Source of the DNA: Bacilli bacterium
Lineage (GTDB): Bacteria > Bacillota_I > Bacilli_A > JAJDGJ01
Direction of reading: 5' to 3'
Length of the DNA: 64,000 nucleotides
Assembly: GCA_031272545.1 (NCBI GenBank)
Contig: JAISTP010000022.1
Coordinates: forward strand, 1,533-65,532
The notes below the pieces were generated by a model, which saw only the letters and a list, made by a program, of their open reading frames with translations, was not told the origin of the DNA and searched no databases. Positions 5,029-29,506 of the stretch are shown in pieces (the first letter of the stretch is position 1; each line of letters opens with the position of its first letter). The position numbers and the translations under genes are program-made.

Positions 5029-6852
5029 TCATTTCTTAATTTCATGATTATATTTAAAATCAGAACTTTCAATATAATAATCACTAAAATAATTAGATTT
5101 AATAATTTTATCACTTATTGAAAATGACTTCTTAATATTAGCTGCCATATCTTTATCAACATTACCTAGAATAATACCATTATTTTCAATAACATAACCA
5201 ATATTATCTTCTAATAAATTATTACCCATAGCTGTATCTTGATATTCTTTTTTATCAACACCTAACAAAGATAATACGGTAGGCATAATATCTATTTCGC
5301 CACCTACTTTTGAAATTTCTTCTCCAATCATACCTTTGCTATAAATTATTAAAGGAATCTTACCATCATTTTCATAATCACTAACATTACCAACTTCTTT
5401 TTCAATAGTAGCATCTGTTGTATATTTATGTAATCCTTCATGATCACCATAAATAACAATTATTGTATTATCTAATTGATTATCTTTATCTAAAGTATCA
5501 ATAAAATTGCCAATAGCACTATCAGTATAATGTACTGCTTGATAATAACGTCCAACTACAGTATTATTAATAGAATCATCTAATTTTAAAGTTTGCATCT
5601 CTTCTGGTATTTTAAATGGCGTATGTGATGTTTCAGTAACTGTAAAAAGATAATATTTATTCTTTTGTTCATTACATAACTGAGCTACTTGTTGTAAGTT
5701 TGCATCATCTTTAAGCCCCATAAAAAACATATCTTCTTTATTAGCTTTCATACCATCAATATCTATTACTTCATCAAAACCTAAATTTGGTAAATAAACA
5801 TTTTTATTCCAAAAATAACTTTTACCACTATGAATAGCGATACTATGATAATCATCTTCTCTTAATAAAACAGGAAGACTATTATAATGATTATAAGGAT
5901 ATAAATATGATTGAGCCCCATTTCTTAAAGGTAATATCGAAGTATTAACCATAAAATCTGCATCACTACTATTACCTTCATTTACTTGTTCATGAACATT
6001 ATTAAAGTAATAACTATTCTTTAATAACTTATTTAAGTTAGGAGTAATTTCTTGGCCATCAACACTTTTATTAATTACAAAATTTTCTAAACTCTCTACT
6101 TGTAAAAAAATAACATTTTTATCTTTAAAAACACCAAAATCACTAACTTTACCAACATTAGTATTTTTAATCTTAAAATAATCCTCAATACTATTTTTTA
6201 CACTATTTTTTGATACTCTTTTATTCAAATCATTAATAAACGAATCAATATCATAATAATGATAACCAATAATACTTAATTTAGCACCTGTTTCAATTTT
6301 AGTTGGTTTTGGTGAAAAAATTTCATCATATCGCGAGATAATAAAACCACAAAATATTAAATAAACCATAAAAATTAATTTAACTTTAATACTTTTATTT
6401 TCTTCACCAGCAACTAAATTTAATAATTTCTTGTGAAAGACTATTAATAATATTGGATCAATAAAGATAATGATATCTAAAGGTTTAATTAAAGCTAAAG
6501 CAGAAGAACCAATTATTCCAAATAATTTATATTGAAAAATATTATAAATACTTATATAAGATTCAAAGCTTCTAAAATAAATTAAATCGGCATACATAAG
6601 AACACTTAAAATAATATCTAAAATCATTAATATTTTATAAGTTGTCTTATTATTAAATATTAAGCTTATCGCAAAATAAGAAAAAGCACAAAAAAGATAT
6701 GAAAGAAGATAACGATTTATTTCAAAATTAGTATCTTTAATCAAAACATCCTCTTGTGAATGAACAACCATCGTAAATATTATTAACTTTATAAAAACAA
6801 ACAAAGATAATAATAAGTAAATAATATTTATTTTAGAAAATAATTTTTTCAA
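5029..6852 (-). CDS. LTA synthase family protein (membrane-anchored sulfatase-type phosphoglycerol transferase)
   Basis: About 5 N-terminal TM helices followed by an extracellular alkaline-phosphatase/sulfatase-like domain (ETSHTPF, VIYGDHEG). Confidence 0.7.
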   Translation of the reverse strand: MKKLFSKINIIYLLLSLFVFIKLIIFTMVVHSQEDVLIKDTNFEINRYLLSYLFCAFSYFAISLIFNNKTTYKILMILDIILSVLMYADLIYFRSFESYISIYNIFQYKLFGIIGSSALALIKPLDIIIFIDPILLIVFHKKLLNLVAGEENKSIKVKLIFMVYLIFCGFIISRYDEIFSPKPTKIETGAKLSIIGYHYYDIDSFINDLNKRVSKNSVKNSIEDYFKIKNTNVGKVSDFGVFKDKNVIFLQVESLENFVINKSVDGQEITPNLNKLLKNSYYFNNVHEQVNEGNSSDADFMVNTSILPLRNGAQSYLYPYNHYNSLPVLLREDDYHSIAIHSGKSYFWNKNVYLPNLGFDEVIDIDGMKANKEDMFFMGLKDDANLQQVAQLCNEQKNKYYLFTVTETSHTPFKIPEEMQTLKLDDSINNTVVGRYYQAVHYTDSAIGNFIDTLDKDNQLDNTIIVIYGDHEGLHKYTTDATIEKEVGNVSDYENDGKIPLIIYSKGMIGEEISKVGGEIDIMPTVLSLLGVDKKEYQDTAMGNNLLEDNIGYVIENNGIILGNVDKDMAANIKKSFSISDKIIKSNYFSDYYIESSDFKYNHEIKK

Positions 6853-6883
6853 ACTTACCCCTTCTTAATGACTATAAAAATAA

Positions 6884-7342
6884 TTAAAATAATTTTAAAA
6901 TAGCATCCTTACCTTTAACTAATGTACGATTATGTTCTTCATCATAAACATAGGCATAAATATCACAATCAATATTATTACTCTTTGTTTTATAATCAAG
7001 ATAATCTTGCATTAATTTATATTCCCCTTCATGTAATGCATCTAACATATTAAATTTTTCATAACCTAATTCTTCAAAACTTTTCGCAACGACATCCATA
7101 CTACTAATATCTATTTCATCTACATGATATTTTTTTAATAATAAATGTAAATATTCTAAACCAACACCAAATTTCTTCGCATAATTATAACCATAATAAG
7201 CATTATTAATGTCTTCACTAGCATTATAATCATATCCAATAATTTCAACATCAATATCTTTCTTTTTATTTATATCGATTAGTTTATCAACTAATTCGTA
7301 ACTATCTTTATTAAGAAAATCAAGATAGATAATACACTTCAT
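6884..7342 (-). CDS. DsbA/FrnE-like thioredoxin-fold protein lacking the CxxC motif (putative)
   Basis: Visible paralogy to the CPYC-containing ORF at 45682-46248 (G.GL.f.H......y.vD....S; ..LG..K blocks). The ATG at 7342 has better SD spacing than 7351. Confidence 0.35.
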   Translation of the reverse strand: MKCIIYLDFLNKDSYELVDKLIDINKKKDIDVEIIGYDYNASEDINNAYYGYNYAKKFGVGLEYLHLLLKKYHVDEIDISSMDVVAKSFEELGYEKFNMLDALHEGEYKLMQDYLDYKTKSNNIDCDIYAYVYDEEHNRTLVKGKDAILKLF

Positions 7343-7453
7343 AATAATCATCCTTTCAATATTTAATAATTATACTACAATTAATGATACTTTTCTTACA
7401 ATAAGTCACAAAAGTTCTAAGATGATGTATAATAGTTAAAAAAGGAGGATAAT

Positions 7454-8122
7454 ATGATTAAAATAATAACTAATTTTATTGATACTCATTATTATATAGT
7501 TTTTATCTTTATGATAATTGTTTTAATATTAGTCCTTCTTTTATTAAGAAAAATATATCTTTATTTCCATGGAAATTTTGGAGAAGGTAATATTTATAAA
7601 AGATTAAGAAGATTATATAACGAATATGATTATCCCTTTATCAAACAGATAATATTAAGTTATAATAATAAAAGTTATGCTTATTATGATGCTATAGTCT
7701 TTGGAGATTATTATATTTATGTATTTGATATTAAAAATCATCATACTACTCTTAAAATAGATCCAATTGATTATTGGCAATTTCAAGAAAAAGATGAAAT
7801 TATTACGATAATTAATCCTTTTTATGAATTAGAAATTAAAAAACATATTCTAAGAAGATATTTAGAAGTAGATGCTTATCGTATTATTGATGTTGTTATT
7901 ATTAATGATAAAACCAAAGTAGTTGGACAAAAAGGTAATCATCATCTTATTAAGCCAAGTCAAATAACTTCATTGATAAGACATTATGAACAAGAAGCAA
8001 CAGTATCAAAGATGAATCCTAAGTTTATTGAAAAAATAGGTAATAACATATTAACTATCAATCAAAAGAAAAATAGAAGAAAAATAATTAATAATATTAA
8101 AAATCAACGAGTAAAGGAGTAA
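7454..8122 (+). CDS. NERD-domain protein with an N-terminal TM anchor
   Basis: GNFGEGNIYKRL ... YDAIVFGDYYIYVFDIKNH fits the NERD GxxGE / D..v / (D/E).K pattern. One N-terminal TM helix. Confidence 0.5.
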   Translation: MIKIITNFIDTHYYIVFIFMIIVLILVLLLLRKIYLYFHGNFGEGNIYKRLRRLYNEYDYPFIKQIILSYNNKSYAYYDAIVFGDYYIYVFDIKNHHTTLKIDPIDYWQFQEKDEIITIINPFYELEIKKHILRRYLEVDAYRIIDVVIINDKTKVVGQKGNHHLIKPSQITSLIRHYEQEATVSKMNPKFIEKIGNNILTINQKKNRRKIINNIKNQRVKE

Positions 8123-12076: not shown

Positions 12077-12385
12077 AATAGATACCTTACAATATCTTTA
12101 TAATTTCTCTTCTTTATTTCATATGTTATTTATTATAAATAACGCCATTATTATACTTACTTATTTAGTATAAACAATCAAGTTATAATAAAATTTACAA
12201 ATATTGAAAATTTTAATAGTTATTAAAACAAATAATCACTATACAATAATATAAATTTCAATATTAATTAATAAACACTTTTTATTGATATTAATAACTT
12301 TTACTATTAAATAAATTGTTCAAATAAGTTACATTTTATTTACCTACAAAAGTATATAATAAGTTATATAAGGAGGTTAATTGTT

Positions 12386-12631
12386 ATGGAAAATAGAGTT
12401 GCCATAATTGGTATTATCGTTGAAGATATTGAAAGTGCTGAACAAATAAATCATATTCTTCATGAATATGCAAATGTTATCATTGGTAGAATGGGCATCC
12501 CATATCATGAAAAAGATTTAAATATTATTAGTATTGCAATAGATGCTAATAATGATGTCATTAATTCTTTAACAGGTAAAATAGGTAAACTTAAAGGTGT
12601 AAGTGCTAAAGCTGTTTATTCATCAAAATAG
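12386..12631 (+). CDS. TM1266-family small ACT-like protein (family annotated as putative iron-only hydrogenase system regulator)
   Basis: 81 aa. The pattern IIGIIVED....A..IN.ILHEY...I.GRMG.P........ISI.ID...D.I..L.GK.G.L.GV..K matches my memory of TM1266-like proteins. Strong SD AAGGAGG. Confidence 0.55.
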   Translation: MENRVAIIGIIVEDIESAEQINHILHEYANVIIGRMGIPYHEKDLNIISIAIDANNDVINSLTGKIGKLKGVSAKAVYSSK

Positions 12632-20371: not shown

Positions 20372-21271
20372 TTATAAATCATATGGTACTTCTTGATATA
20401 CATAATAATTTAACCAATTATTATAGAAAGTACTTGCATTACTAACCCAATTATAATTAATAAGAGTTTCTTCTTCATTAAGATAGTAATGTAATGGTTT
20501 TAAAACATCTTCATTATTAATATCTCTTAAATATTCCTTTTCTAAAGTATCTTTATCATATTCATAATGACCAAAAACAAATAATTGTTTATTATCTTTG
20601 CTTTTAACTAAATGAATTCCTGCTTCCTTAGAATAAGCTAATATTTCTAAATTACTATTTCTTTTTATTTGATCAGGATTACTTTGAGTAAGACGAGAAT
20701 GACATACTTCAAAAATATCATCACTTCCAATAAATAACTGATCATTAGGTTTGACTTTATAATGCTTAAAAACACCAAATAATTTTTGTTTAAAATTATC
20801 TTTTTTAATATCATAGAAATAGTTTAAGGCAAATTGCGCTGAATAACAAATAAACATTGAAGTAAAAACATTATCTATAGACCACTTTAATATCTCTTTT
20901 AATTCATCATAGTAATTAACTTCATTAAAATCAAGATGTTCAATAGGAGCGCCTGTCACAATAAGAGCATCAAATTTCTTATGCTTAATTTCTTCAAAAC
21001 TTTTATAAAAAGTTTTTAAATATTTTAAAGAAGTATTCTTTGGTTTGTGTGATTTTATAGCTAATAAAGTAATATTTATTTGAATAATATTATTACTAAG
21101 CTTCTTAAGTAATTGATTTTCAGTACTAATTTTGTCAGGCATTAAATTTAAAATAATAATTTCTAAAGGTCTAATATCTTGATGAAAAGCTTTAATATCA
21201 TTCATCACAAAAACATTATGTTTTTTTAAATAACTAGATGCAGGTAAATCTTTATTAATTATAACAGGCAT
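20372..21271 (-). CDS. metA: Homoserine O-acyltransferase (MetA family)
   Basis: MetA N-terminus (MPVIINKDLPA..L...NVFVM......HQDIRPLEI.ILNLMP). About 300 aa. Confidence 0.9.
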   Translation of the reverse strand: MPVIINKDLPASSYLKKHNVFVMNDIKAFHQDIRPLEIIILNLMPDKISTENQLLKKLSNNIIQINITLLAIKSHKPKNTSLKYLKTFYKSFEEIKHKKFDALIVTGAPIEHLDFNEVNYYDELKEILKWSIDNVFTSMFICYSAQFALNYFYDIKKDNFKQKLFGVFKHYKVKPNDQLFIGSDDIFEVCHSRLTQSNPDQIKRNSNLEILAYSKEAGIHLVKSKDNKQLFVFGHYEYDKDTLEKEYLRDINNEDVLKPLHYYLNEEETLINYNWVSNASTFYNNWLNYYVYQEVPYDL

Positions 21272-23024: not shown

Positions 23025-23054
23025 AAAAAAGTTCTTGAAGCATTCAAGAACTTT
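23025..23054 (-). terminator. Intrinsic terminator ending the arg operon
   Basis: Minus strand AGTTCTTGAA-TGCT-TTCAAGAACT followed by T6. Confidence 0.7.
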
Positions 23055-23056
23055 AA

Positions 23057-23161
23057 TTAGTTATACATGAAATAACAAATTAAACCTATTATTATGACAA
23101 TAGTTATTAAGATAAAACGTACTATCTTATAACCAATAAATAATTCAATTAATTTCTTCAT
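23057..23161 (-). CDS. 34-aa hydrophobic peptide (single TM) at the 3' end of the arg operon
   Basis: My own translation gives MKKLIELFIGYKIVRFILITIVIIIGLICYFMYN. SD AAAGGAGA lies 7 nt upstream and a terminator immediately follows the stop. Below the ORF-track size cut-off. Confidence 0.4.
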   Translation of the reverse strand: MKKLIELFIGYKIVRFILITIVIIIGLICYFMYN

Positions 23162-23228
23162 AATATCATTTCTCCTTTACAAGGATAATATAACATAAAT
23201 TTAATTAATATTAAATACTTATTTTCTA

Positions 23229-24560
23229 TTATTTATTGTTATTATCTAACCAATTCTTATTTAAATTACGTTTATTAAAACAATTTTCTAAAGATATCTC
23301 TTGATAAATATCATCTTCAAAAAATGATGATACTTCTTGATATTTATTTAAAGGTAATGTTGAAAAATCTAAATCCTGTTCTAAACAATAAGCAACTAAT
23401 TTTCCAACTATTTGATAGGCTTCACGAAATGGAACTCCTTTTTTTGCTAGGTAATCCGCCACATCTGTTGCATTAATAAATCCTTTATGAGCTGCTTCTT
23501 TCATATTATCTTTTAACACTTTCATACTTGATAACATCGGAATGAATGTTTTTAAACATATCTTAACAGTATCAATACTATCAAAGATAGCTTCTTTATC
23601 TTCTTGCATATCTTTATTATAGGCTAAAGGCAGAGCTTTAAGCATCGTCAACAAAGCAATACTATTACCATAAACACGTCCTGTTTTACCACGGACTAAT
23701 TCCGCAATATCAGGATTTTTCTTTTGAGGCATAATTGATGAACCTGTCGCAAAAGCATCATCTAATTCAATATACTTAAATTCATTTGAACACCAAAGTA
23801 CTATTTCTTCACTAAATCTAGATAAATGCATCATAATAATATTAATAGCACTAGCTAGTTCTAAACAATAATCACGATCAGAAACAGCGTCCATGGTATT
23901 GATCATAGGTTTATTAAAACCAAGTAATGAACTAGTTTCTTCTTGACTAATAGGATGAGTAGTACCAGCTAAAGCACCAGCACCTAATGGGCTTTCATTC
24001 ATTCGATTATAACAATCATCAAGTCTTGTAATATCACGTTTGAACATTTGAACATAAGCATCTAAATGAATTGCTAAACTTATTGGTTGTGCTTTTTGTA
24101 AATGAGTATATCCACTCATAATAGTATTCTCATGTTCTAAACATAATTTATTTAAAACTAATAGTAATTCTTTTAAATATTTCTTAATATTATTAATTTC
24201 TTTTTTTACATATAATCTTAAATCTAAAGCTACTTGATCATTTCTACTTCTAGCTGTATGTAATTTCTTACCTAAAGTTCCTAATCTTTTAGTTAATTCC
24301 TGTTCAATAAAAGAATGAATATCTTCGGCATCTTTAATTTCTAATTTATCACTATCTATATCTTTTAAAATATTATTTAATTCATCAATAATCTTATTAC
24401 TTTCTTCTTTATCAATAATATTACAATCACCTAACATAGTTACATGCGCAATAGAACCAATAATATCTTCATAATATAGTCTTTTATCAAAAGGTAATGA
24501 TGAATTAAAATCATTAACATCTTGATTTAATTCTTTACTAAAACGTCCTTTCCATAACAT
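23229..24560 (-). CDS. argH: Argininosuccinate lyase
   Basis: Fumarate-lyase signature GSSIMPQKKNPD and the ArgH N-terminus (LWKGRFS). Confidence 0.95.
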   Translation of the reverse strand: MLWKGRFSKELNQDVNDFNSSLPFDKRLYYEDIIGSIAHVTMLGDCNIIDKEESNKIIDELNNILKDIDSDKLEIKDAEDIHSFIEQELTKRLGTLGKKLHTARSRNDQVALDLRLYVKKEINNIKKYLKELLLVLNKLCLEHENTIMSGYTHLQKAQPISLAIHLDAYVQMFKRDITRLDDCYNRMNESPLGAGALAGTTHPISQEETSSLLGFNKPMINTMDAVSDRDYCLELASAINIIMMHLSRFSEEIVLWCSNEFKYIELDDAFATGSSIMPQKKNPDIAELVRGKTGRVYGNSIALLTMLKALPLAYNKDMQEDKEAIFDSIDTVKICLKTFIPMLSSMKVLKDNMKEAAHKGFINATDVADYLAKKGVPFREAYQIVGKLVAYCLEQDLDFSTLPLNKYQEVSSFFEDDIYQEISLENCFNKRNLNKNWLDNNNK

Positions 24561-24562
24561 AA

Positions 24563-25801
24563 TTACTTTTCCTTTCCATCAATATCTTCAGTTAATTTAT
24601 TTTTTAATAAACCTAATGTTTTCATTTCTAAACCATATATTTTAAGAAAACCAGAACTATCTTTTTGATTAAAAATATCATCTTCTTCAAAAGTTGCTAG
24701 TTCTTGTGAATGTAAAGAATATTTTGATTTTAATCCAGCTACTATCATATTACCTTTATATAATTTAAGTTTTACTACACCGCTAACATGTTCTTGAGTC
24801 TTATCCACAAAGACATCTAATGCTTCTTTTAATGGAGTAAACCAATGACCAGTATAAACAAGTTGTGCATATTCTTGGGCTACAAAGTTTTTAAAATGAG
24901 TAGTACTCTTATCTAAACAAAGACTTTCTAATAATTCATGAGCACGATATAACAAAGTCGCTCCAGGTGATTCAGATACACTATGTGCTTTCATACCAAT
25001 AATTCTATTAGCGACAATATCTAATATCCCAATACCATGTTTACCTGCTATTTCATTTAATTTCTTTACTAAAGATAAGCTATCTAAATATTCATCATTT
25101 ACTTTAATAGGTAATCCTTTTTCAAATTCAATACTAATATATTCAGCTTCATCACTTGCTTTTTCAGGAGTATTACATAATTCCATATATTCCCAATTAG
25201 GTTCATTACTTGGATCTTCTAATTCCATCCCTTCATGTGATAAATGCCATAAATTTAAATCTTTTGAATAATTCTTTTCTCTGCTAATACCATTTAATTT
25301 AATATTATGCTTTTCACAATAATCAAATTCATCACTTCTTGAAGTTAATTCCCATTCACGCCAAGGTGCTATTATTTTGATATTAGGAGCTAAATTCATA
25401 ATACTTAATTCAAATCTAACTTGATCATTACCTTTACCAGTGGCTCCATGACAAATAGCATCAGCATGTTCTTTATTGGCGATTTCTACTAATTTTTGGG
25501 CAATTAATGGTCTAGCAAGTGGAGTACCCATTGTATACCCTTCATATTTAGCACCCGCTTTTAAAGCTTTAAAACAATAATTATCAATAAATTCTTTTTG
25601 TGCATCAATGACAATTAATTTATCTAAACCACTACTATTAGCTCTTTTATTAATATTACTTAATTCACTAGTTTGACCAACATTAACACATACACCAATA
25701 ACAAAAGGATTATTATAATTTTCTTTTAACCATGGCACAATAACTGATGTATCTAGTCCACCACTATATGCCAAAACTACTTTTTTAATATTATTACTCA
25801 T
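24563..25801 (-). CDS. argG: Argininosuccinate synthase
   Basis: AYSGGLDTS PP-loop. The ATG at 25801 follows GGGGGAAAAG and overlaps the upstream stop (ATGAGTAA). Confidence 0.95.
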   Translation of the reverse strand: MSNNIKKVVLAYSGGLDTSVIVPWLKENYNNPFVIGVCVNVGQTSELSNINKRANSSGLDKLIVIDAQKEFIDNYCFKALKAGAKYEGYTMGTPLARPLIAQKLVEIANKEHADAICHGATGKGNDQVRFELSIMNLAPNIKIIAPWREWELTSRSDEFDYCEKHNIKLNGISREKNYSKDLNLWHLSHEGMELEDPSNEPNWEYMELCNTPEKASDEAEYISIEFEKGLPIKVNDEYLDSLSLVKKLNEIAGKHGIGILDIVANRIIGMKAHSVSESPGATLLYRAHELLESLCLDKSTTHFKNFVAQEYAQLVYTGHWFTPLKEALDVFVDKTQEHVSGVVKLKLYKGNMIVAGLKSKYSLHSQELATFEEDDIFNQKDSSGFLKIYGLEMKTLGLLKNKLTEDIDGKEK

Positions 25802-26288
25802 CTTCTTTTCCCCCATTAAAATATATTTGTTTATTTCCAGTTAATCTAGCCCAATAATCAGTCCCATACTCAAAATGCCACCATTCATTATAAAAGTTAA
25901 TAAAACCTTCATCTTTCATTAAAGAACATAATAATTCACGATTAGCTTTAACTTCATCATTAATATAATATTCAGTAGCTTGAGTACCGTCAAAACAAAG
26001 ATAATCACTACCCATATCTTTATCTAATAATGCAATATCTACTGCGCCTCCAGTAACATGAACCGCTTTGCTTGGTATTGCAATATATTTATGGACTTGT
26101 TCATCACTCATATCAGGATGTTCTTCTTTAAATTTATTAAACATAGCTATTTGTTTTTCAATAGGGCGATAGCCTTCATAAAGAATTATTTTATGATTTT
26201 TTGCAACTCTTTTTAACTTTTCATAAACTTCTTCTTGAAGATATTGTGTAGTATAAGTAATTATATTTTTATCATCTACTTTAATCAC
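25794..26288 (-). CDS. M15-family zinc D-Ala-D-Ala dipeptidase/carboxypeptidase-like protein (VanX/VanY fold)
   Basis: HxxGxAxD (VHVTGGAVD) and EWWHFEY motifs. GTG start at 26288 with SD AAGGAGA 6 nt upstream. Overlaps both neighbouring genes by 8 nt. Confidence 0.75.
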   Translation of the reverse strand: MIKVDDKNIITYTTQYLQEEVYEKLKRVAKNHKIILYEGYRPIEKQIAMFNKFKEEHPDMSDEQVHKYIAIPSKAVHVTGGAVDIALLDKDMGSDYLCFDGTQATEYYINDEVKANRELLCSLMKDEGFINFYNEWWHFEYGTDYWARLTGNKQIYFNGGKEDE

Positions 26289-27900
26289 AATTAATCTCCT
26301 TTACATTTAAAGCTTGTCCCATTATTAACATGGCTTCCGCAATACCTAAACCATTAGAAAATTCTTGTAAAGTAATAATATCATTATCAAATAAACAAAC
26401 TTCATCATCATATTTACAATCAATACCTGTTACATCTATCATACAAATATCCATACAAACTTTACCTATTATTGGCGCTTTCTTGCCATTAACAATGACA
26501 AAACCTTTATTAGATAAATTTTTTCCAATACCATCCGCATAACCACCACTAATAGTTGCGACTTTGGTTTCTTTATCTGTTTTATATGTTCTATTATAAC
26601 CAACATAATAATCTTTTGGTAAAGTAGTTATTTGAATAATCTTACTAGTTAATTTTAAAGCTGGTTTTAAAGATACATATTTTTTTAAATGTTCTTCAGG
26701 ATAATAACCATATAAAATTAAACCTATTCTTGCCATATTACAATGATCCTGTGGTTGAACAAACGAAGCTGAAGAACAACCAGAATGTTTATATTTTATT
26801 TCACCTAGGATACTTTGTGCTATATCAATACATTCAAGAAATATTTTTGTTTGCATATTAGAATACTCAATATCTTCAATAGCTTCACTTTCAGTACAAC
26901 AATAATGCATAAATATTCCATCTACTTTTATATTTTTTAATTCTTTTATTTTCTTACAAAATTCTAATAAATCTTGTGGTAAAATACCTAACATTCCTGA
27001 ACCTGCTTCAATATTTAAATGAACTTTAGTTCCCCCTTCATCATTTAATTGTTCTAGAAATTCAATATTATTACTTACAGCTATTTGAAATTTATGACTA
27101 ACTATTTCAGGAATATCTTCAAAACAAGGTTGATACATTAAGAAAACATCACCTTTATAATATTGTTTTAATTTAATAGCTTCAGCTAAAGTCGCAACAC
27201 CAGCAATACGAGAATTCTTGATCACTTTCGCAATAGCTTCAAAACCAATTCCATAAGCATGTCCCTTAACAACAGGCATAACTTCCATTTTAATAGCATT
27301 TTCTATATTCTTTAAATTATCTTTCATAGCTTTAATATCAACTAATAAATTTGTTGGATTAAACATAGTACTCTTCTCCTTATCAAATAACATATATATT
27401 CTATAATCATCACTTGTATTACCATTACCTTTCTGTATTAAAGGTAATTCTTCAAAACCCATTCTTTTATGTAAAGCAATACTTGGCACATTATCTGTTT
27501 TAGTTCTCATTAATATTTTATTAACAGGGCATTGTTTGATTGTTTCTTCTAATAATTTCTTGGCGATATTATTACCTCGATCTGATTTAATTACGCCTAA
27601 CTCTGAATGATAATATACTTCTGTTGGTTTATTAAAATAGTTTTTAACTTCATTAGAAATATATTCATCATATAATAATGGTCTAGATCCCGCAAAACCA
27701 ACTAATTTTTTATTTTTATAGGCAAATAAAAGAAAACCTGTTTTTAGATGGTTACTATAAATATCCCATAATTCTTCATCAGAGTATTTAATAAAATACG
27801 GTGCACTTCCAAAACATTCATCAAATAATTTAGGAAAACCTTTATTAAATTCTTCTTTTAATTCTTGTTCATCTTTTAATCTTTTAATTTCAATATCCAT
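26281..27900 (-). CDS. Fusion protein: N-terminal GNAT acetyltransferase plus C-terminal alanine-racemase-fold PLP enzyme
   Basis: Residues ~1-175 are GNAT (DRGNNIAKKLL motif A, ALHKRMGFEE). Residues ~180-539 are Alr-like (VVKGHAYGIG PLP-lysine motif, GGYADG, GKVCMD). Confidence 0.8.
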   Translation of the reverse strand: MDIEIKRLKDEQELKEEFNKGFPKLFDECFGSAPYFIKYSDEELWDIYSNHLKTGFLLFAYKNKKLVGFAGSRPLLYDEYISNEVKNYFNKPTEVYYHSELGVIKSDRGNNIAKKLLEETIKQCPVNKILMRTKTDNVPSIALHKRMGFEELPLIQKGNGNTSDDYRIYMLFDKEKSTMFNPTNLLVDIKAMKDNLKNIENAIKMEVMPVVKGHAYGIGFEAIAKVIKNSRIAGVATLAEAIKLKQYYKGDVFLMYQPCFEDIPEIVSHKFQIAVSNNIEFLEQLNDEGGTKVHLNIEAGSGMLGILPQDLLEFCKKIKELKNIKVDGIFMHYCCTESEAIEDIEYSNMQTKIFLECIDIAQSILGEIKYKHSGCSSASFVQPQDHCNMARIGLILYGYYPEEHLKKYVSLKPALKLTSKIIQITTLPKDYYVGYNRTYKTDKETKVATISGGYADGIGKNLSNKGFVIVNGKKAPIIGKVCMDICMIDVTGIDCKYDDEVCLFDNDIITLQEFSNGLGIAEAMLIMGQALNVKEINCD

Positions 27901-27914
27901 ATTATTACCTCCCT

Positions 27915-27956
27915 AATAAAAAATGACGTTACTCACTTATTTGAATAACGTCATTT
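27915..27956 (-). terminator. Leader terminator (attenuator) 10 nt upstream of the SD of the GNAT-racemase gene
   Basis: Minus strand AATGACGTTATTC-AAATAAGT-GAGTAACGTCATT (13 bp including one G-U) followed by a T-run, then TAGGGAGG and the ATG. Confidence 0.7.
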
Positions 27957-27995: not shown

Positions 27996-28079
27996 TTACA
28001 AGTCACAATGAAATACGACGCATCCATTATAACGGCGTCGAACTACGATATTTACATTATTATTAATTAAATTAATCAT
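27996..28079 (-). CDS. Candidate leader peptide (27 aa) with three consecutive Arg codons
   Basis: My own translation gives MINLINNNVNIVVRRRYNGCVVFHCDL. SD AAGGAGA is upstream. The Arg codons are CGA CGC CGT, in a genome where Arg appears mostly AGA-encoded, and they form the 5' arm of a CGACGC/GCGTCG hairpin. Confidence 0.4.
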   Translation of the reverse strand: MINLINNNVNIVVRRRYNGCVVFHCDL

Positions 28080-28107: not shown

Positions 28108-28138
28108 ATAATATAAAGGTTTCTTAAATATTTGTCAA
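28108..28138 (-). promoter_or_regulatory. Promoter of the Arg-leader transcript
   Basis: Minus strand TTGACA (28133-28138) followed about 17-19 nt later by TATATTAT. Confidence 0.45.
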
Positions 28139-28186: not shown

Positions 28187-29506
28187 ATGGATAAAAATTA
28201 TGAAAAACTTTTAGATAAAACTTTATTATTTTCAAAAGAATATCTTAATTTATTAGAAAATAGAGAGATCTTTCCTTCTAAAGATAATCTATCATATTTA
28301 AAACAAATAGATACTAAACTACCAATAGAAACGCTTAATGAAATAGAAGTATTAAATGAAATTCATGAACTAGCAAAAAAGACAACTGTTATTCAAAATA
28401 GTGGTCGATATTTTGGTTATGTCATTGGAAGTATGTTACCGATAGCTCATGCGATTAGTTGGTTAAGTGATACTTATAATCAAAATAATGCACTTTATCA
28501 TATGTCTTTATTTAATGCGAAAATTGAAGAAATTACTCAAAAATGGTTAAATGAATTATTAAGACTTGATAAAAGATGTGTAACAGGTTTTGTTAGTGGC
28601 TCAACTACAGCTACTCTTTGTGCTATAAGTATTGCTAGAAATAATATTTATAAAAATAATGATATTAATAAATTAAGAATAATTATCAGTGAACAAGCTC
28701 ACTTAACGATATTTAAAGCATTAAAAATATTAGGAATTAATGAAAACATTATTATAAAAGTACCTTGTGATAAAGATGGTAAGATAATTGTATCTGAATT
28801 ACCTAAACTTACTTGTAATGATATTATCATTATTCAAGTTGGAAATTTAAATGGTGGTGCAAATGATGATATCAATGCGATATGTTCAATAGCCCAAAAA
28901 GTTAAAGCATGGGTTCATATTGATGGAGCTTTTGGTTTATGGAGTTGTATGTTAGATGAATATAAAAATGATTTTATTGGGCTTGAAAAAGCTGATTCAT
29001 ACTCATTAGATGCTCATAAAACATTAAATGCATGTTATAGTTGTGGCATGATAATATGTAAACATAAAGATATATTTATTGATACAATGAATTATAACTT
29101 ACAAAAAACTAATGATGATAAGAGAAATAATATGACTTATTCATTAGAAATGTCTAAAAGAAGTAGAGCTTTAATGGTATATGCGACTATTAAGCAATTA
29201 GGAAAAAATGGTATTATTAATATGTTAGAACAAATGTCAGAAATAACAAAATATTTTGCAAGTGAACTAAAGAAACATCACTTAACTATTGTTAATAAAG
29301 TTAATTTTAATCAATTTATGTTTTATTATGACAATGATACTAAAACAAAAATACTATTAAATAAAATAAATAGTAGTGGAAAATGTTATTTTTCAAGTAG
29401 CACTTTTAATAATCATTATGTAATAAGAGTTAGCGTTTGTTCATATAAAACAAATAAAAATGATATAGATTATTGTATTAATATTATTAAAGAATTATTA
29501 GTTTAA
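28187..29506 (+). CDS. Group II PLP-dependent decarboxylase-like protein
   Basis: SLDAHKTLN PLP-lysine motif, fold-type I layout. 439 aa. Confidence 0.65.
   Translation: MDKNYEKLLDKTLLFSKEYLNLLENREIFPSKDNLSYLKQIDTKLPIETLNEIEVLNEIHELAKKTTVIQNSGRYFGYVIGSMLPIAHAISWLSDTYNQNNALYHMSLFNAKIEEITQKWLNELLRLDKRCVTGFVSGSTTATLCAISIARNNIYKNNDINKLRIIISEQAHLTIFKALKILGINENIIIKVPCDKDGKIIVSELPKLTCNDIIIIQVGNLNGGANDDINAICSIAQKVKAWVHIDGAFGLWSCMLDEYKNDFIGLEKADSYSLDAHKTLNACYSCGMIICKHKDIFIDTMNYNLQKTNDDKRNNMTYSLEMSKRSRALMVYATIKQLGKNGIINMLEQMSEITKYFASELKKHHLTIVNKVNFNQFMFYYDNDTKTKILLNKINSSGKCYFSSSTFNNHYVIRVSVCSYKTNKNDIDYCINIIKELLV

Follow-up and report, generated by a model that had tools for sequence, protein, structure and literature searches.

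Why should the last two enzymes of arginine biosynthesis be encoded in one string of genes with an acetyltransferase, a racemase and a peptidase? This question is raised by a locus in a stretch of 64,000 nucleotides (hereafter the window; positions 1,533 to 65,532, forward strand, of contig JAISTP010000022.1, assembly GCA_031272545.1) from a Bacilli bacterium of the GTDB lineage JAJDGJ01. On the minus strand of this window, open reading frames (ORFs) for a fusion of a GNAT domain to a pyridoxal phosphate (PLP)-dependent racemase, for an M15 peptidase, for ArgG and for ArgH succeed one another, with junctions that overlap or abut. The answer that we propose starts from ArgG. The ArgG of this module is a distinct subtype, lacking two otherwise invariant citrulline contacts and found only beside the trio of GNAT, racemase and M15 peptidase, and we hypothesize, at a probability of about 0.45, that this variant (ArgG*) works on an N-α-blocked citrulline made by the trio.

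As a family member, the protein scores above the ArgG equivalog cut-offs (NF001770, 545 bits against 334; TIGR00032, 475 against 268). Its peculiarity is a loop that reads DIVANRIIGMKAHSVSESP in ArgG* and DIVENRxVGxKSRGxYExP in T. thermophilus, T. maritima, Campylobacter and 6xnq. We compared nine module ArgGs with 21 ArgGs from genomes of the same class that have no trio, plus that of T. thermophilus, and asked for columns with disjoint residue sets and controls at least 85% uniform. Only four columns of the whole protein separated the two groups, all of them in this one loop: E258A, S266A, G268S and Y270S in T. thermophilus numbering; relaxed criteria added neighbouring columns of the same loop and a few others. 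The corresponding codons, for Ala264, Ala272, Ser274 and Ser276, lie at 24974..25012 of the minus strand, and these positions correspond to Glu258, Ser266, Gly268 and Tyr270 of T. thermophilus and, within a conserved motif, to human Glu270, Ser278, Gly280 and Tyr282. In human ASS1 citrulline is contacted by Tyr87, Asn123, Arg127, Ser189, Glu191, Glu270 and Tyr282 (2026 deep-mutational study summarising the human structure, PMC13289927; also PMC10360398), and the Glu270Gln enzyme is without activity (PMC13289927). In ArgG* the P-loop of N-type ATP pyrophosphatases and the residues on the aspartate and ureido sides are conserved (Thr119, Asn123, Asp124, Arg127, Ser180, Ser189 and Glu191), as are the motifs AYSGGLDTS, GATGKGNDQVRFE, YSKD and HLSHEG. 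We take Glu258/270 and Tyr270/282 to be the residues that hold the α-ammonium of citrulline in the T. thermophilus and E. coli structures.

The association of this signature with the trio was very regular. Among the best 120 ArgG matches in 5.8 billion proteins, 16 had Ala/Ser at the two contacts, all of them top-ranked, and 103 had Glu/Tyr; all 16 module-type ArgGs carried Ala/Ser, and the 124 other ArgGs examined carried Glu/Tyr. Wherever the context of an Ala/Ser ArgG could be read, it stood in the module beside the trio (10/10). In a blind test, a variant ArgG (P0155) that had been predicted to be a module member was found behind a GNAT-racemase fusion and an M15 gene, with ArgH following. 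The same column test applied to ArgH gave no separating column, which argues that the ArgG signal is not simply a matter of phylogenetic distance.

Because the Glu and Tyr contacts are lost and the rest is intact, in the sole ArgG of a genome that induces it upon arginine shortage, ArgG* most likely binds a citrulline with a different amino-acid end. The replacements Glu to Ala and Tyr to Ser would be expected if the α-nitrogen carried a neutral acyl group. This change of the citrulline pocket, overlooked by an earlier note on this DNA, would link the three unusual enzymes with the reaction of ArgG, and not with a salvage that runs in parallel, and we infer that the trio constitutes steps of the citrulline-to-arginine conversion and not a side activity.

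The fusion (26281-27900, minus strand as all module genes, 539 aa) is followed by the M15 gene (25794-26288, 164 aa, GTG start), by argG (24563-25816, the ATG at 25801 being the likelier start, hence 24563-25801) and by argH (23229-24560). All three junctions were read again directly in the sequence: at GTGATTAA the stop of the fusion overlaps the M15 GTG, at ATGAGTAA the M15 stop overlaps the inner argG ATG, and argG and argH are joined as TAA-TT-ATG. The reading frames and overlaps are exactly as the earlier note had described them, and the motifs VVKGHAYGIG, HVTGGAVD and EWWH are present. Upstream, the top-scoring promoter-like site of the region is TTGACA-17-TATATT (28110..28138, minus strand; 11/12 matches, a consensus match only). 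It is followed by a leader ORF of 27 codons (27996..28079, minus strand) with an AAAGGAG ribosome-binding site ahead, which reads MINLINNNVNIVVRRRYNGCVVFHCDL and includes three consecutive Arg codons, CGA CGC CGT, at 28040-28032, and then by an intrinsic terminator with a 15-bp stem and a U-run (27915..27956, minus strand, with the hairpin at 27956-27921; fold of the region z = -4.8 against shuffles). The features of a leader-peptide attenuator, namely a short ORF, an Arg codon run and an intrinsic terminator before the first gene, are present. The only other terminator-like hairpin of the minus strand (23028..23054) comes after an ORF for a 34-aa hydrophobic peptide (23057-23161, minus strand) that has its own ribosome-binding site. 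With this near-consensus promoter, and with minus-strand terminators only in the leader and after the 34-aa ORF, it is plausible that the four enzyme genes form a single transcription unit. The 34-aa peptide, which had been counted as part of the operon, has no counterpart downstream of argH in six relatives, and appears to be local to this genome and outside the conserved module.

Control by arginine extends to the relatives. Eleven loci (the window, L086, L087, L088, L092, L096, L101, L103, L104, L105 and L135) have a leader ORF with an Arg run (RRR, RRRR or RVRR) before the GNAT gene, and in L090/L091 the position of the leader is taken by a T-box (111 bits) whose specifier is AGA (Arg), in a register calibrated on the Met T-box of the window, which has AUG at the same model positions. 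The presence of two different tRNA-sensing devices before the same genes suggests a need for GNAT, racemase and M15 under arginine shortage, and the module, with all its five functions, appears to be induced by uncharged or scarce tRNA-Arg. Similar devices were observed around some of these loci. In L090 a second, near-identical Arg T-box (5552-5781, within 5552-6642) precedes an unannotated 192-aa GNAT (5835-6413), unrelated to the module GNAT and with weak matches to models of the N-acetylglutamate synthase (NAGS) type; three tRNA-Arg genes (ACG, TCT, TCT; 6391-6642) directly follow it, so that tRNA-Arg may lie downstream of a T-box-controlled gene. In L086, a leader ORF reading MIKKGTQSFNSLHHHHGMVDFALPVMI, with four His codons, lies between argH and hisG (12334-12417), and that lineage seems to use leader attenuation for histidine too.

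The arrangement is not restricted to the window. The same five functions occur together in at least 13 metagenomic loci with GC contents of 27-49% and different flanking genes each time, and gene set and order are identical in every relative with a readable contig. The GNAT is fused to the racemase in L086, L087, L092, L101 and L135, and has a gene of its own, immediately upstream of that for the racemase, in L088/89, L090/91, L096/97, L098 and L105, with an overlap in L088-L091; L102-L104 hold fragmentary modules. With the gene set present again in each relative that was examined, chance falls far short of explaining the juxtaposition. The parts are rare: among 5.8 billion proteins the fusion has only six full-length relatives, its clade includes about eight racemase-only proteins at 52-60% identity (ordinary Alrs begin at about 40%), and the M15 subfamily comprises only about 20 clusters. 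Neither the fusion nor any ArgG was found in the other genomes of the order to which the window belongs (6 genomes in total), among them a same-genus genome that is 96% complete; some 400 genomes sampled from the class or phylum had neither fusion nor M15, and the matches of the fusion in a scan of genome contigs were only distant Alr and MurF-Alr genes, from Bacteroidales and others. Module ArgGs are 66-72% identical to that of the window, the best ArgG of the window's own class only 60%, and synteny with the same-genus genome (G001) breaks off at the met T-box next to the operon, where no clean empty site was evident in G001. Taken together, the patchy distribution, the ArgG identities and the break in synteny suggest that the five functions travel together as one horizontally mobile unit. 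No transporter or ligase is conserved in any module flank, the neighbourhoods of a sister racemase (P0020) and a VanX-like protein (P0143) were uninformative, and one M15 homologue (P0129) stands alone, adjoining an esterase.

These results bear on the claims from which the work started. The earlier note had proposed a single Arg-controlled unit in a combination that is not a known pathway, and both proposals held: the first in view of the Arg-codon leader, the placement of promoter and terminators and the Arg leaders of the relatives, the second because the combination, which appears to be real, conserved and undescribed, recurs in every relative examined. The possibility, also raised there, that relatives have the trio only apart from arg genes did not materialize in the survey of gene neighbourhoods.

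The racemase domain (26281..27372, minus strand; residues 177-539 of the fusion) keeps the features that define Alr, which are the fold (Pfam Ala_racemase_N and _C at residues 187-526), the PLP lysine, the second base Tyr265' and Arg219 on the pyridine nitrogen, and reaches 230.7 bits on TIGR00492 (cut-off 168), a model that ignores active-site changes. In the Alr of G. stearothermophilus, whose numbering is used here, Arg136 and carbamylated Lys129 form the carboxylate/O3' anchor and Tyr354 restricts the pocket to alanine. The window protein has Lys212 (Lys39), His332, Arg391 (Arg219) and Tyr435 (Tyr265') in place, and it has Asn296 for Lys129, Met303 for Arg136, Ile485 for Gln314 and Ala521 for Tyr354, so that these four defining residues of the substrate site are not kept. 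In an alignment of the arg-linked clade with sister Alrs and the two other Alr paralogues of the genome, the clade retained Lys39, Tyr43, His166, Arg219, Tyr265', Tyr284', Met312' and Asp313', and showed the replacements throughout (Lys129 by Asn; Arg136 by Met, or Ile in two; Gln314 by Ile, Met, Leu or Thr; Tyr354 by Ala or Gly); the sister proteins P0017 and P0022 keep Arg136 and Tyr354. As Arg136, Lys129, Gln314 and Tyr354 are lost across the clade and the catalytic Lys and Tyr are kept, the enzyme does not appear to be a plain alanine racemase, in agreement with the earlier suspicion; its two-base machinery seems intact in a pocket that is probably larger and poorer by two cationic groups. 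Kinship with the ornithine (Orr) or broad-spectrum (Bsr) racemases had also been suggested. This did not hold up, since the Orr model NF040742 gave 23.7 bits (cut-off 480) and the solved Bsr and lysine racemases score below Alr: the nearest solved relatives are Firmicute Alr (164 bits) and, as third-best, VanT-G, with lysine racemase 4dza (93.8 bits), Bsr 4dyj/4beu (70-75 bits) and histidine racemase more distant. The Orr-like gene of this genome lies elsewhere, beside OraSE on contig C50. Two further Alr paralogues of ordinary length (383 and 385 aa; C35:19139-20290 and C40:49377-50534) keep Lys129 and Arg136 and have His or Gln at the position of Tyr354, and one of them follows a GntR-like regulator.

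The M15 protein is a cytoplasmic zinc peptidase of VanX/VanXY type (Pfam Peptidase_M15/VanY). In 22 sequences, Arg41, His77, Asp84, Glu135 and His138 are invariant, corresponding to the His-Asp-His zinc ligands, the catalytic Glu and the Arg of GYR, and the Ser of the SxHxxGxAxD motif is replaced by Ala75 (A-V-H). It falls below the VanX/VanXY equivalog cut-offs (NF033115, 41.5/320; NF007557, 45.9/176; NF000380, 35.4/250 bits) and is shorter than VanX by about 30 residues at the N-terminus; by sequence it matches VanXY-G best and, in a structural model of moderate quality (predicted local distance difference test score, pLDDT, of 79; TM score of about 0.45 to VanX), the nearest folds are VanX, LdcB and VanXYc. 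Since the racemase also reaches 219 bits on the VanT-G catalytic model, one may ask whether a VanT/VanXY-like pair acts during arginine starvation to lower D-Ala-D-Ala or alter the terminus of the precursor, and only shares a transcript with argGH. We regard such cell-wall remodelling as highly improbable: no ligase and no two-component regulator accompany the pair, Arg136, which VanT keeps, is lost, and the ArgG signature and the GNAT would have no explanation.

For the GNAT domain (27373..27900, minus strand; residues 1-176 of the fusion; Pfam Acetyltransf_1 at residues 35-149, E = 4.6e-9), a role as a short NAGS had been considered. We reject this candidate, as no NAGS model occurs among its profile matches, the relatives have NAGS-type genes of their own, and N-acetylglutamate would be useless in a genome that has no ArgB, C, D, F or J. 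The AlphaFold model (pLDDT 90) matches hundreds of GNAT folds, the best being ArsN, PAT, YncA and RimI-type N-α-acetyltransferases, and most copies carry the acetyl-CoA motif RxxGxA as RGKGLA or RRQGIA. Because detoxifying enzymes (ArsN, PAT, YncA/MddA) are its nearest folds, because weak NCBIfam matches to ArsN1 and streptothricin acetyltransferases were seen, and because the horizontal distribution is as patchy as that of resistance cassettes, the trio might instead detoxify an analogue of arginine or citrulline, for instance by inversion and N-acetylation with M15 editing mis-made D,D-dipeptides, and the altered pocket of ArgG would serve to exclude the toxin. This seems very unlikely to us, since Foldseek E-values hardly differ among many GNATs and an ArgG without Glu270 should fail on citrulline too; we also know of no toxin that fits.

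The metabolic setting narrows the possible input of the module. The genome (1.32 Mb, 98% complete) has a single argG and a single argH, both in the module. As the earlier note had stated, no further arg genes lie in the window, and none was found elsewhere in the genome: ArgB, ArgJ and ornithine transcarbamylase (OTC) are absent, as are ArgA, ArgC and ArgD (tblastn with the proteins of L096) and arginine deiminase (arcA). An OTC-like match on contig C21, which could have indicated a de novo supply of citrulline, proved to be pyrB in a pyrB-pyrC-carB operon. In L096 the module stands beside a full set of arg genes, and the transcarbamylase there, considered as a possible acetylornithine transcarbamylase that feeds N-acetylcitrulline, is a canonical OTC (401 bits, cut-off 306). 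The input of the module would hence be free citrulline in both settings. Directly after the argH of the L096 module (6281-7648) we observed a gene whose 455-aa product starts with a GNAT domain and ends with an acetylglutamate-kinase domain (TIGR00761, 177 bits, cut-off 151), the reverse of the domain order of classical ArgA, with a second, stand-alone ArgB nearby. In the genome of the window, the stretch C50:12413-19640 holds what appears to be a cluster for oxidative ornithine fermentation, with an Orr-like racemase (353 aa), OraE-like (731 aa) and OraS-like (123 aa) proteins and an arginase-fold gene (285 aa), all assigned from a reading of the sequences and not from profile searches. Fermentation of arginine or ornithine may go together, in this organism, with dependence on the module for making arginine.

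With these data, the view that ordinary parts (a short NAGS, a housekeeping alanine racemase and a D-Ala-D-Ala dipeptidase) have come to lie beside a standard argGH by chance or hitch-hiking is hardly credible. In its favour, the racemase does pass the TIGR00492 cut-off, and GNAT-argH/argG neighbourhoods with NAGS function have reportedly been described. It is already contradicted by the missing arg genes (ArgB/C/D/F/J), by the active-site changes in both racemase and ArgG and by the gene context of P0155. A GNAT unrelated to NAGS models, the conservation of the module in at least 13 loci with different flanks and the two other Alr genes of the genome also argue against it.

If ArgG* takes an N-α-blocked citrulline, the trio would have to make that substrate and release the product. 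The acetyl group is suggested by the presence of a GNAT, and the D configuration by the racemase and the stereochemistry of the M15 family, so that a possible sequence of six steps can be drawn. The racemase would invert L-citrulline to D-citrulline; the GNAT, which is joined to the racemase by fusion or by translational coupling, would use acetyl-CoA to form N-α-acetyl-D-citrulline; ArgG*, whose pocket lacks the anion and the bulky Tyr for an α-ammonium, would join L-aspartate to the ureido group, giving N-acetyl-D-argininosuccinate; ArgH would free fumarate and leave N-acetyl-D-arginine; M15 would strip the acetyl group to give D-arginine; and the same racemase, its pocket enlarged by the change of Tyr354 to Ala, would convert D-arginine to L-arginine. 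The order, with the racemase acting on free amino acids and M15 on the amide of a D-centre, follows from the facts that a PLP racemase needs a free amine and that characterised M15 enzymes (VanX, VanY, LdcB) cleave amides with a D-centre on the amine side. The claim that citrulline is N-blocked is firmer than these acetyl and D details, and the full D-series, that is, the last arginine steps performed on mirror-image protected intermediates by a mobile five-function cassette under tRNA-Arg control, is possible but doubtful.

The same ArgG evidence would fit a protected route in the L-series, in which the GNAT makes N-acetyl-L-citrulline, ArgG* and ArgH handle L intermediates, M15 is an N-acetyl-L-arginine deacetylase and the racemase is unrelated or serves proofreading. 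With the residues on the carboxylate side kept, this is the simplest way to fit an N-acetyl group to the changes Glu to Ala and Tyr to Ser. We nevertheless hold it to be quite unlikely, for it leaves a strictly conserved, GNAT-fused racemase without function, and the M15 enzymes characterised so far cleave before a D-centre.

A further explanation separates the trio from ArgG altogether. ArgG* would use free L-citrulline, the changes in its loop being compensated, and the trio would form a separate arginine-scavenging arm: M15 would cleave D,D-dipeptides to release a D-amino acid, the L form of D-arginine or of some other basic or ureido D-amino acid would be supplied by the racemase, and the task of the GNAT would be to acetylate a by-product. 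Such a parallel salvage would agree with the Arg-responsive control of the whole operon, with a racemase pocket that is enlarged and less cationic, and with the VanX-like acidic residues of M15, which suit a free N-terminus; moreover, in Pseudomonas the conversion of D- to L-arginine by DauA/DauB is under control of the arginine regulon. It does not explain why ArgG has lost Glu270 and Tyr282 only in company of the trio, given that Glu270Gln kills the activity of human ASS1 (PMC13289927), nor does it account for the GNAT-racemase fusion or give the GNAT a necessary role, and D-Arg dipeptides are not known to be abundant. We therefore judge it unlikely, but deserving of real weight.

Several observations weigh against the hypothesis of an N-blocked citrulline as we have drawn it. 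The deep-mutational study of ASS1 (PMC13289927) states for Glu270 and Tyr282 only that they contact citrulline, and does not assign them to the α-amino group specifically. Even with relaxed criteria, ArgH (TIGR00838, 592 bits, cut-off 279.5), which is canonical, has zero columns that separate 7 module from 19 control sequences. In M15, Glu38 and Asp100 align with Asp68 and Asp142 of VanX, which we take to hold the free N-terminal ammonium of D-Ala-D-Ala, and would thus fit a dipeptide better than an N-acetyl substrate. The loss of Arg136, the usual partner of the substrate carboxylate in the G. stearothermophilus Alr, has no explanation if the racemase acts on free citrulline and arginine, both with free carboxylates. 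Where the CoA motif calls for Gly, the GNAT of the window itself has Asn (RGNNIA). All copies of the module probably share one ancestor, so the association of the ArgG variant with the trio may represent a single evolutionary event. The substituent and its stereochemistry are both deduced, and the detour would cost one acetyl-CoA without an established selective reason; one could speculate that it insulates the intermediates from L-specific catabolism, given the arginase-like gene and the ornithine-fermentation cluster on C50.

Other features of the surroundings were observed along the way. Divergent from the promoter of the arg leader, a group II PLP decarboxylase is encoded on the plus strand (28187-29506), unlinked to the module in all relatives. 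On the other side, at 20372-21271, comparison with the same-genus locus L111 (G001:C71) showed that the order of metY and MetH/MTHFR-like genes is kept, with about 110 nt in place of the window metA (homoserine O-succinyltransferase). In two class relatives with small genomes (L132 and L133, of G233 and G020), argG contains 5-6 in-frame TGA codons, which suggests that part of the class reads TGA as Trp; the genes of the window need no such reading.

The step from citrulline to arginine, catalysed by ArgG and ArgH, counts as universal and invariant. The ArgG subtype and its trio point to an unrecognised chemical variant of this textbook pathway, situated at the final arginine steps and possibly with D-intermediates, comparable in kind to the discoveries of the N-acetylcitrulline and N-succinyl routes. 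If true, it would bring new functions to three large families, namely an Alr-fold citrulline/arginine racemase, a VanX-fold deacylase and an ArgG specific for N-acyl-citrulline. Automated pathway tools would misread such genomes, reporting that citrulline to Arg is intact on account of an ArgG that is probably unable to use free citrulline without the trio. In our full-text literature searches we found no paper on this gene combination or on a microbial route from N-acetylcitrulline to N-acetylarginine.

Compared with known systems, the parts of the module have known folds, and as judged from their residues ArgG, the racemase and M15 each seem to miss a defining feature of their family. One close system is the canonical ArgG-ArgH pair, including the orphan argGH used for citrulline salvage in arginine auxotrophs such as streptococci, with which the module shares the two families, their standing as the only arg genes of the genome and the induction by arginine shortage; it differs in that its ArgG is without Glu270 and Tyr282 and that a GNAT, a PLP racemase and an M15 amidase always precede it. 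The control region has the short ORF with a codon run and the terminator of the trpL and hisL leader attenuators, or the T-box riboswitch, and the amino acid concerned is arginine. The closest characterised relatives of the racemase/M15 pair are the VanT serine racemase and VanXY of VanC- and VanG-type operons, where the two cytoplasmic catalytic domains are likewise adjacent; the module, however, has no D-Ala-D-Ser ligase, VanRS or membrane domain, Arg136, Lys129, Gln314 and Tyr354 are replaced, and it is under tRNA-Arg control. The LysW carrier system of lysine and arginine biosynthesis in Thermus and Sulfolobus resembles it in concept only, through a masked α-amino group and adapted pockets, since it uses a protein carrier, concerns early steps and has no enzyme homologous to those of the module. 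In the catabolism of D-glutamate by DgcN/DgcA, as summarized from Yu et al. 2023 in bioRxiv 10.1101/2024.10.14.618325, an acetyltransferase works together with a racemase by way of an N-acetyl-D intermediate that has a link to arginine metabolism; going by that summary, the enzymes are of other families and the racemase acts on the N-acetylated compound, whereas the PLP enzyme of the module must act on the free amino acid. The closest of the known systems are the acyl-protected arginine pathways, those of Xanthomonas with N-acetylcitrulline and acetylornithine transcarbamylase and of Bacteroides with N-succinyl intermediates, which also have a late N-α-acyl intermediate and its removal by a hydrolase. 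In these routes glutamate receives the acyl group, and it is ArgE that takes it off, at the level of citrulline and ahead of a standard ArgG; in the module the OTC is canonical or absent, and the block would be put on citrulline and stay until ArgH has acted, with unrelated enzymes attaching and removing it, probably in the D series, a chemistry that, if real, would be close to categorically new.

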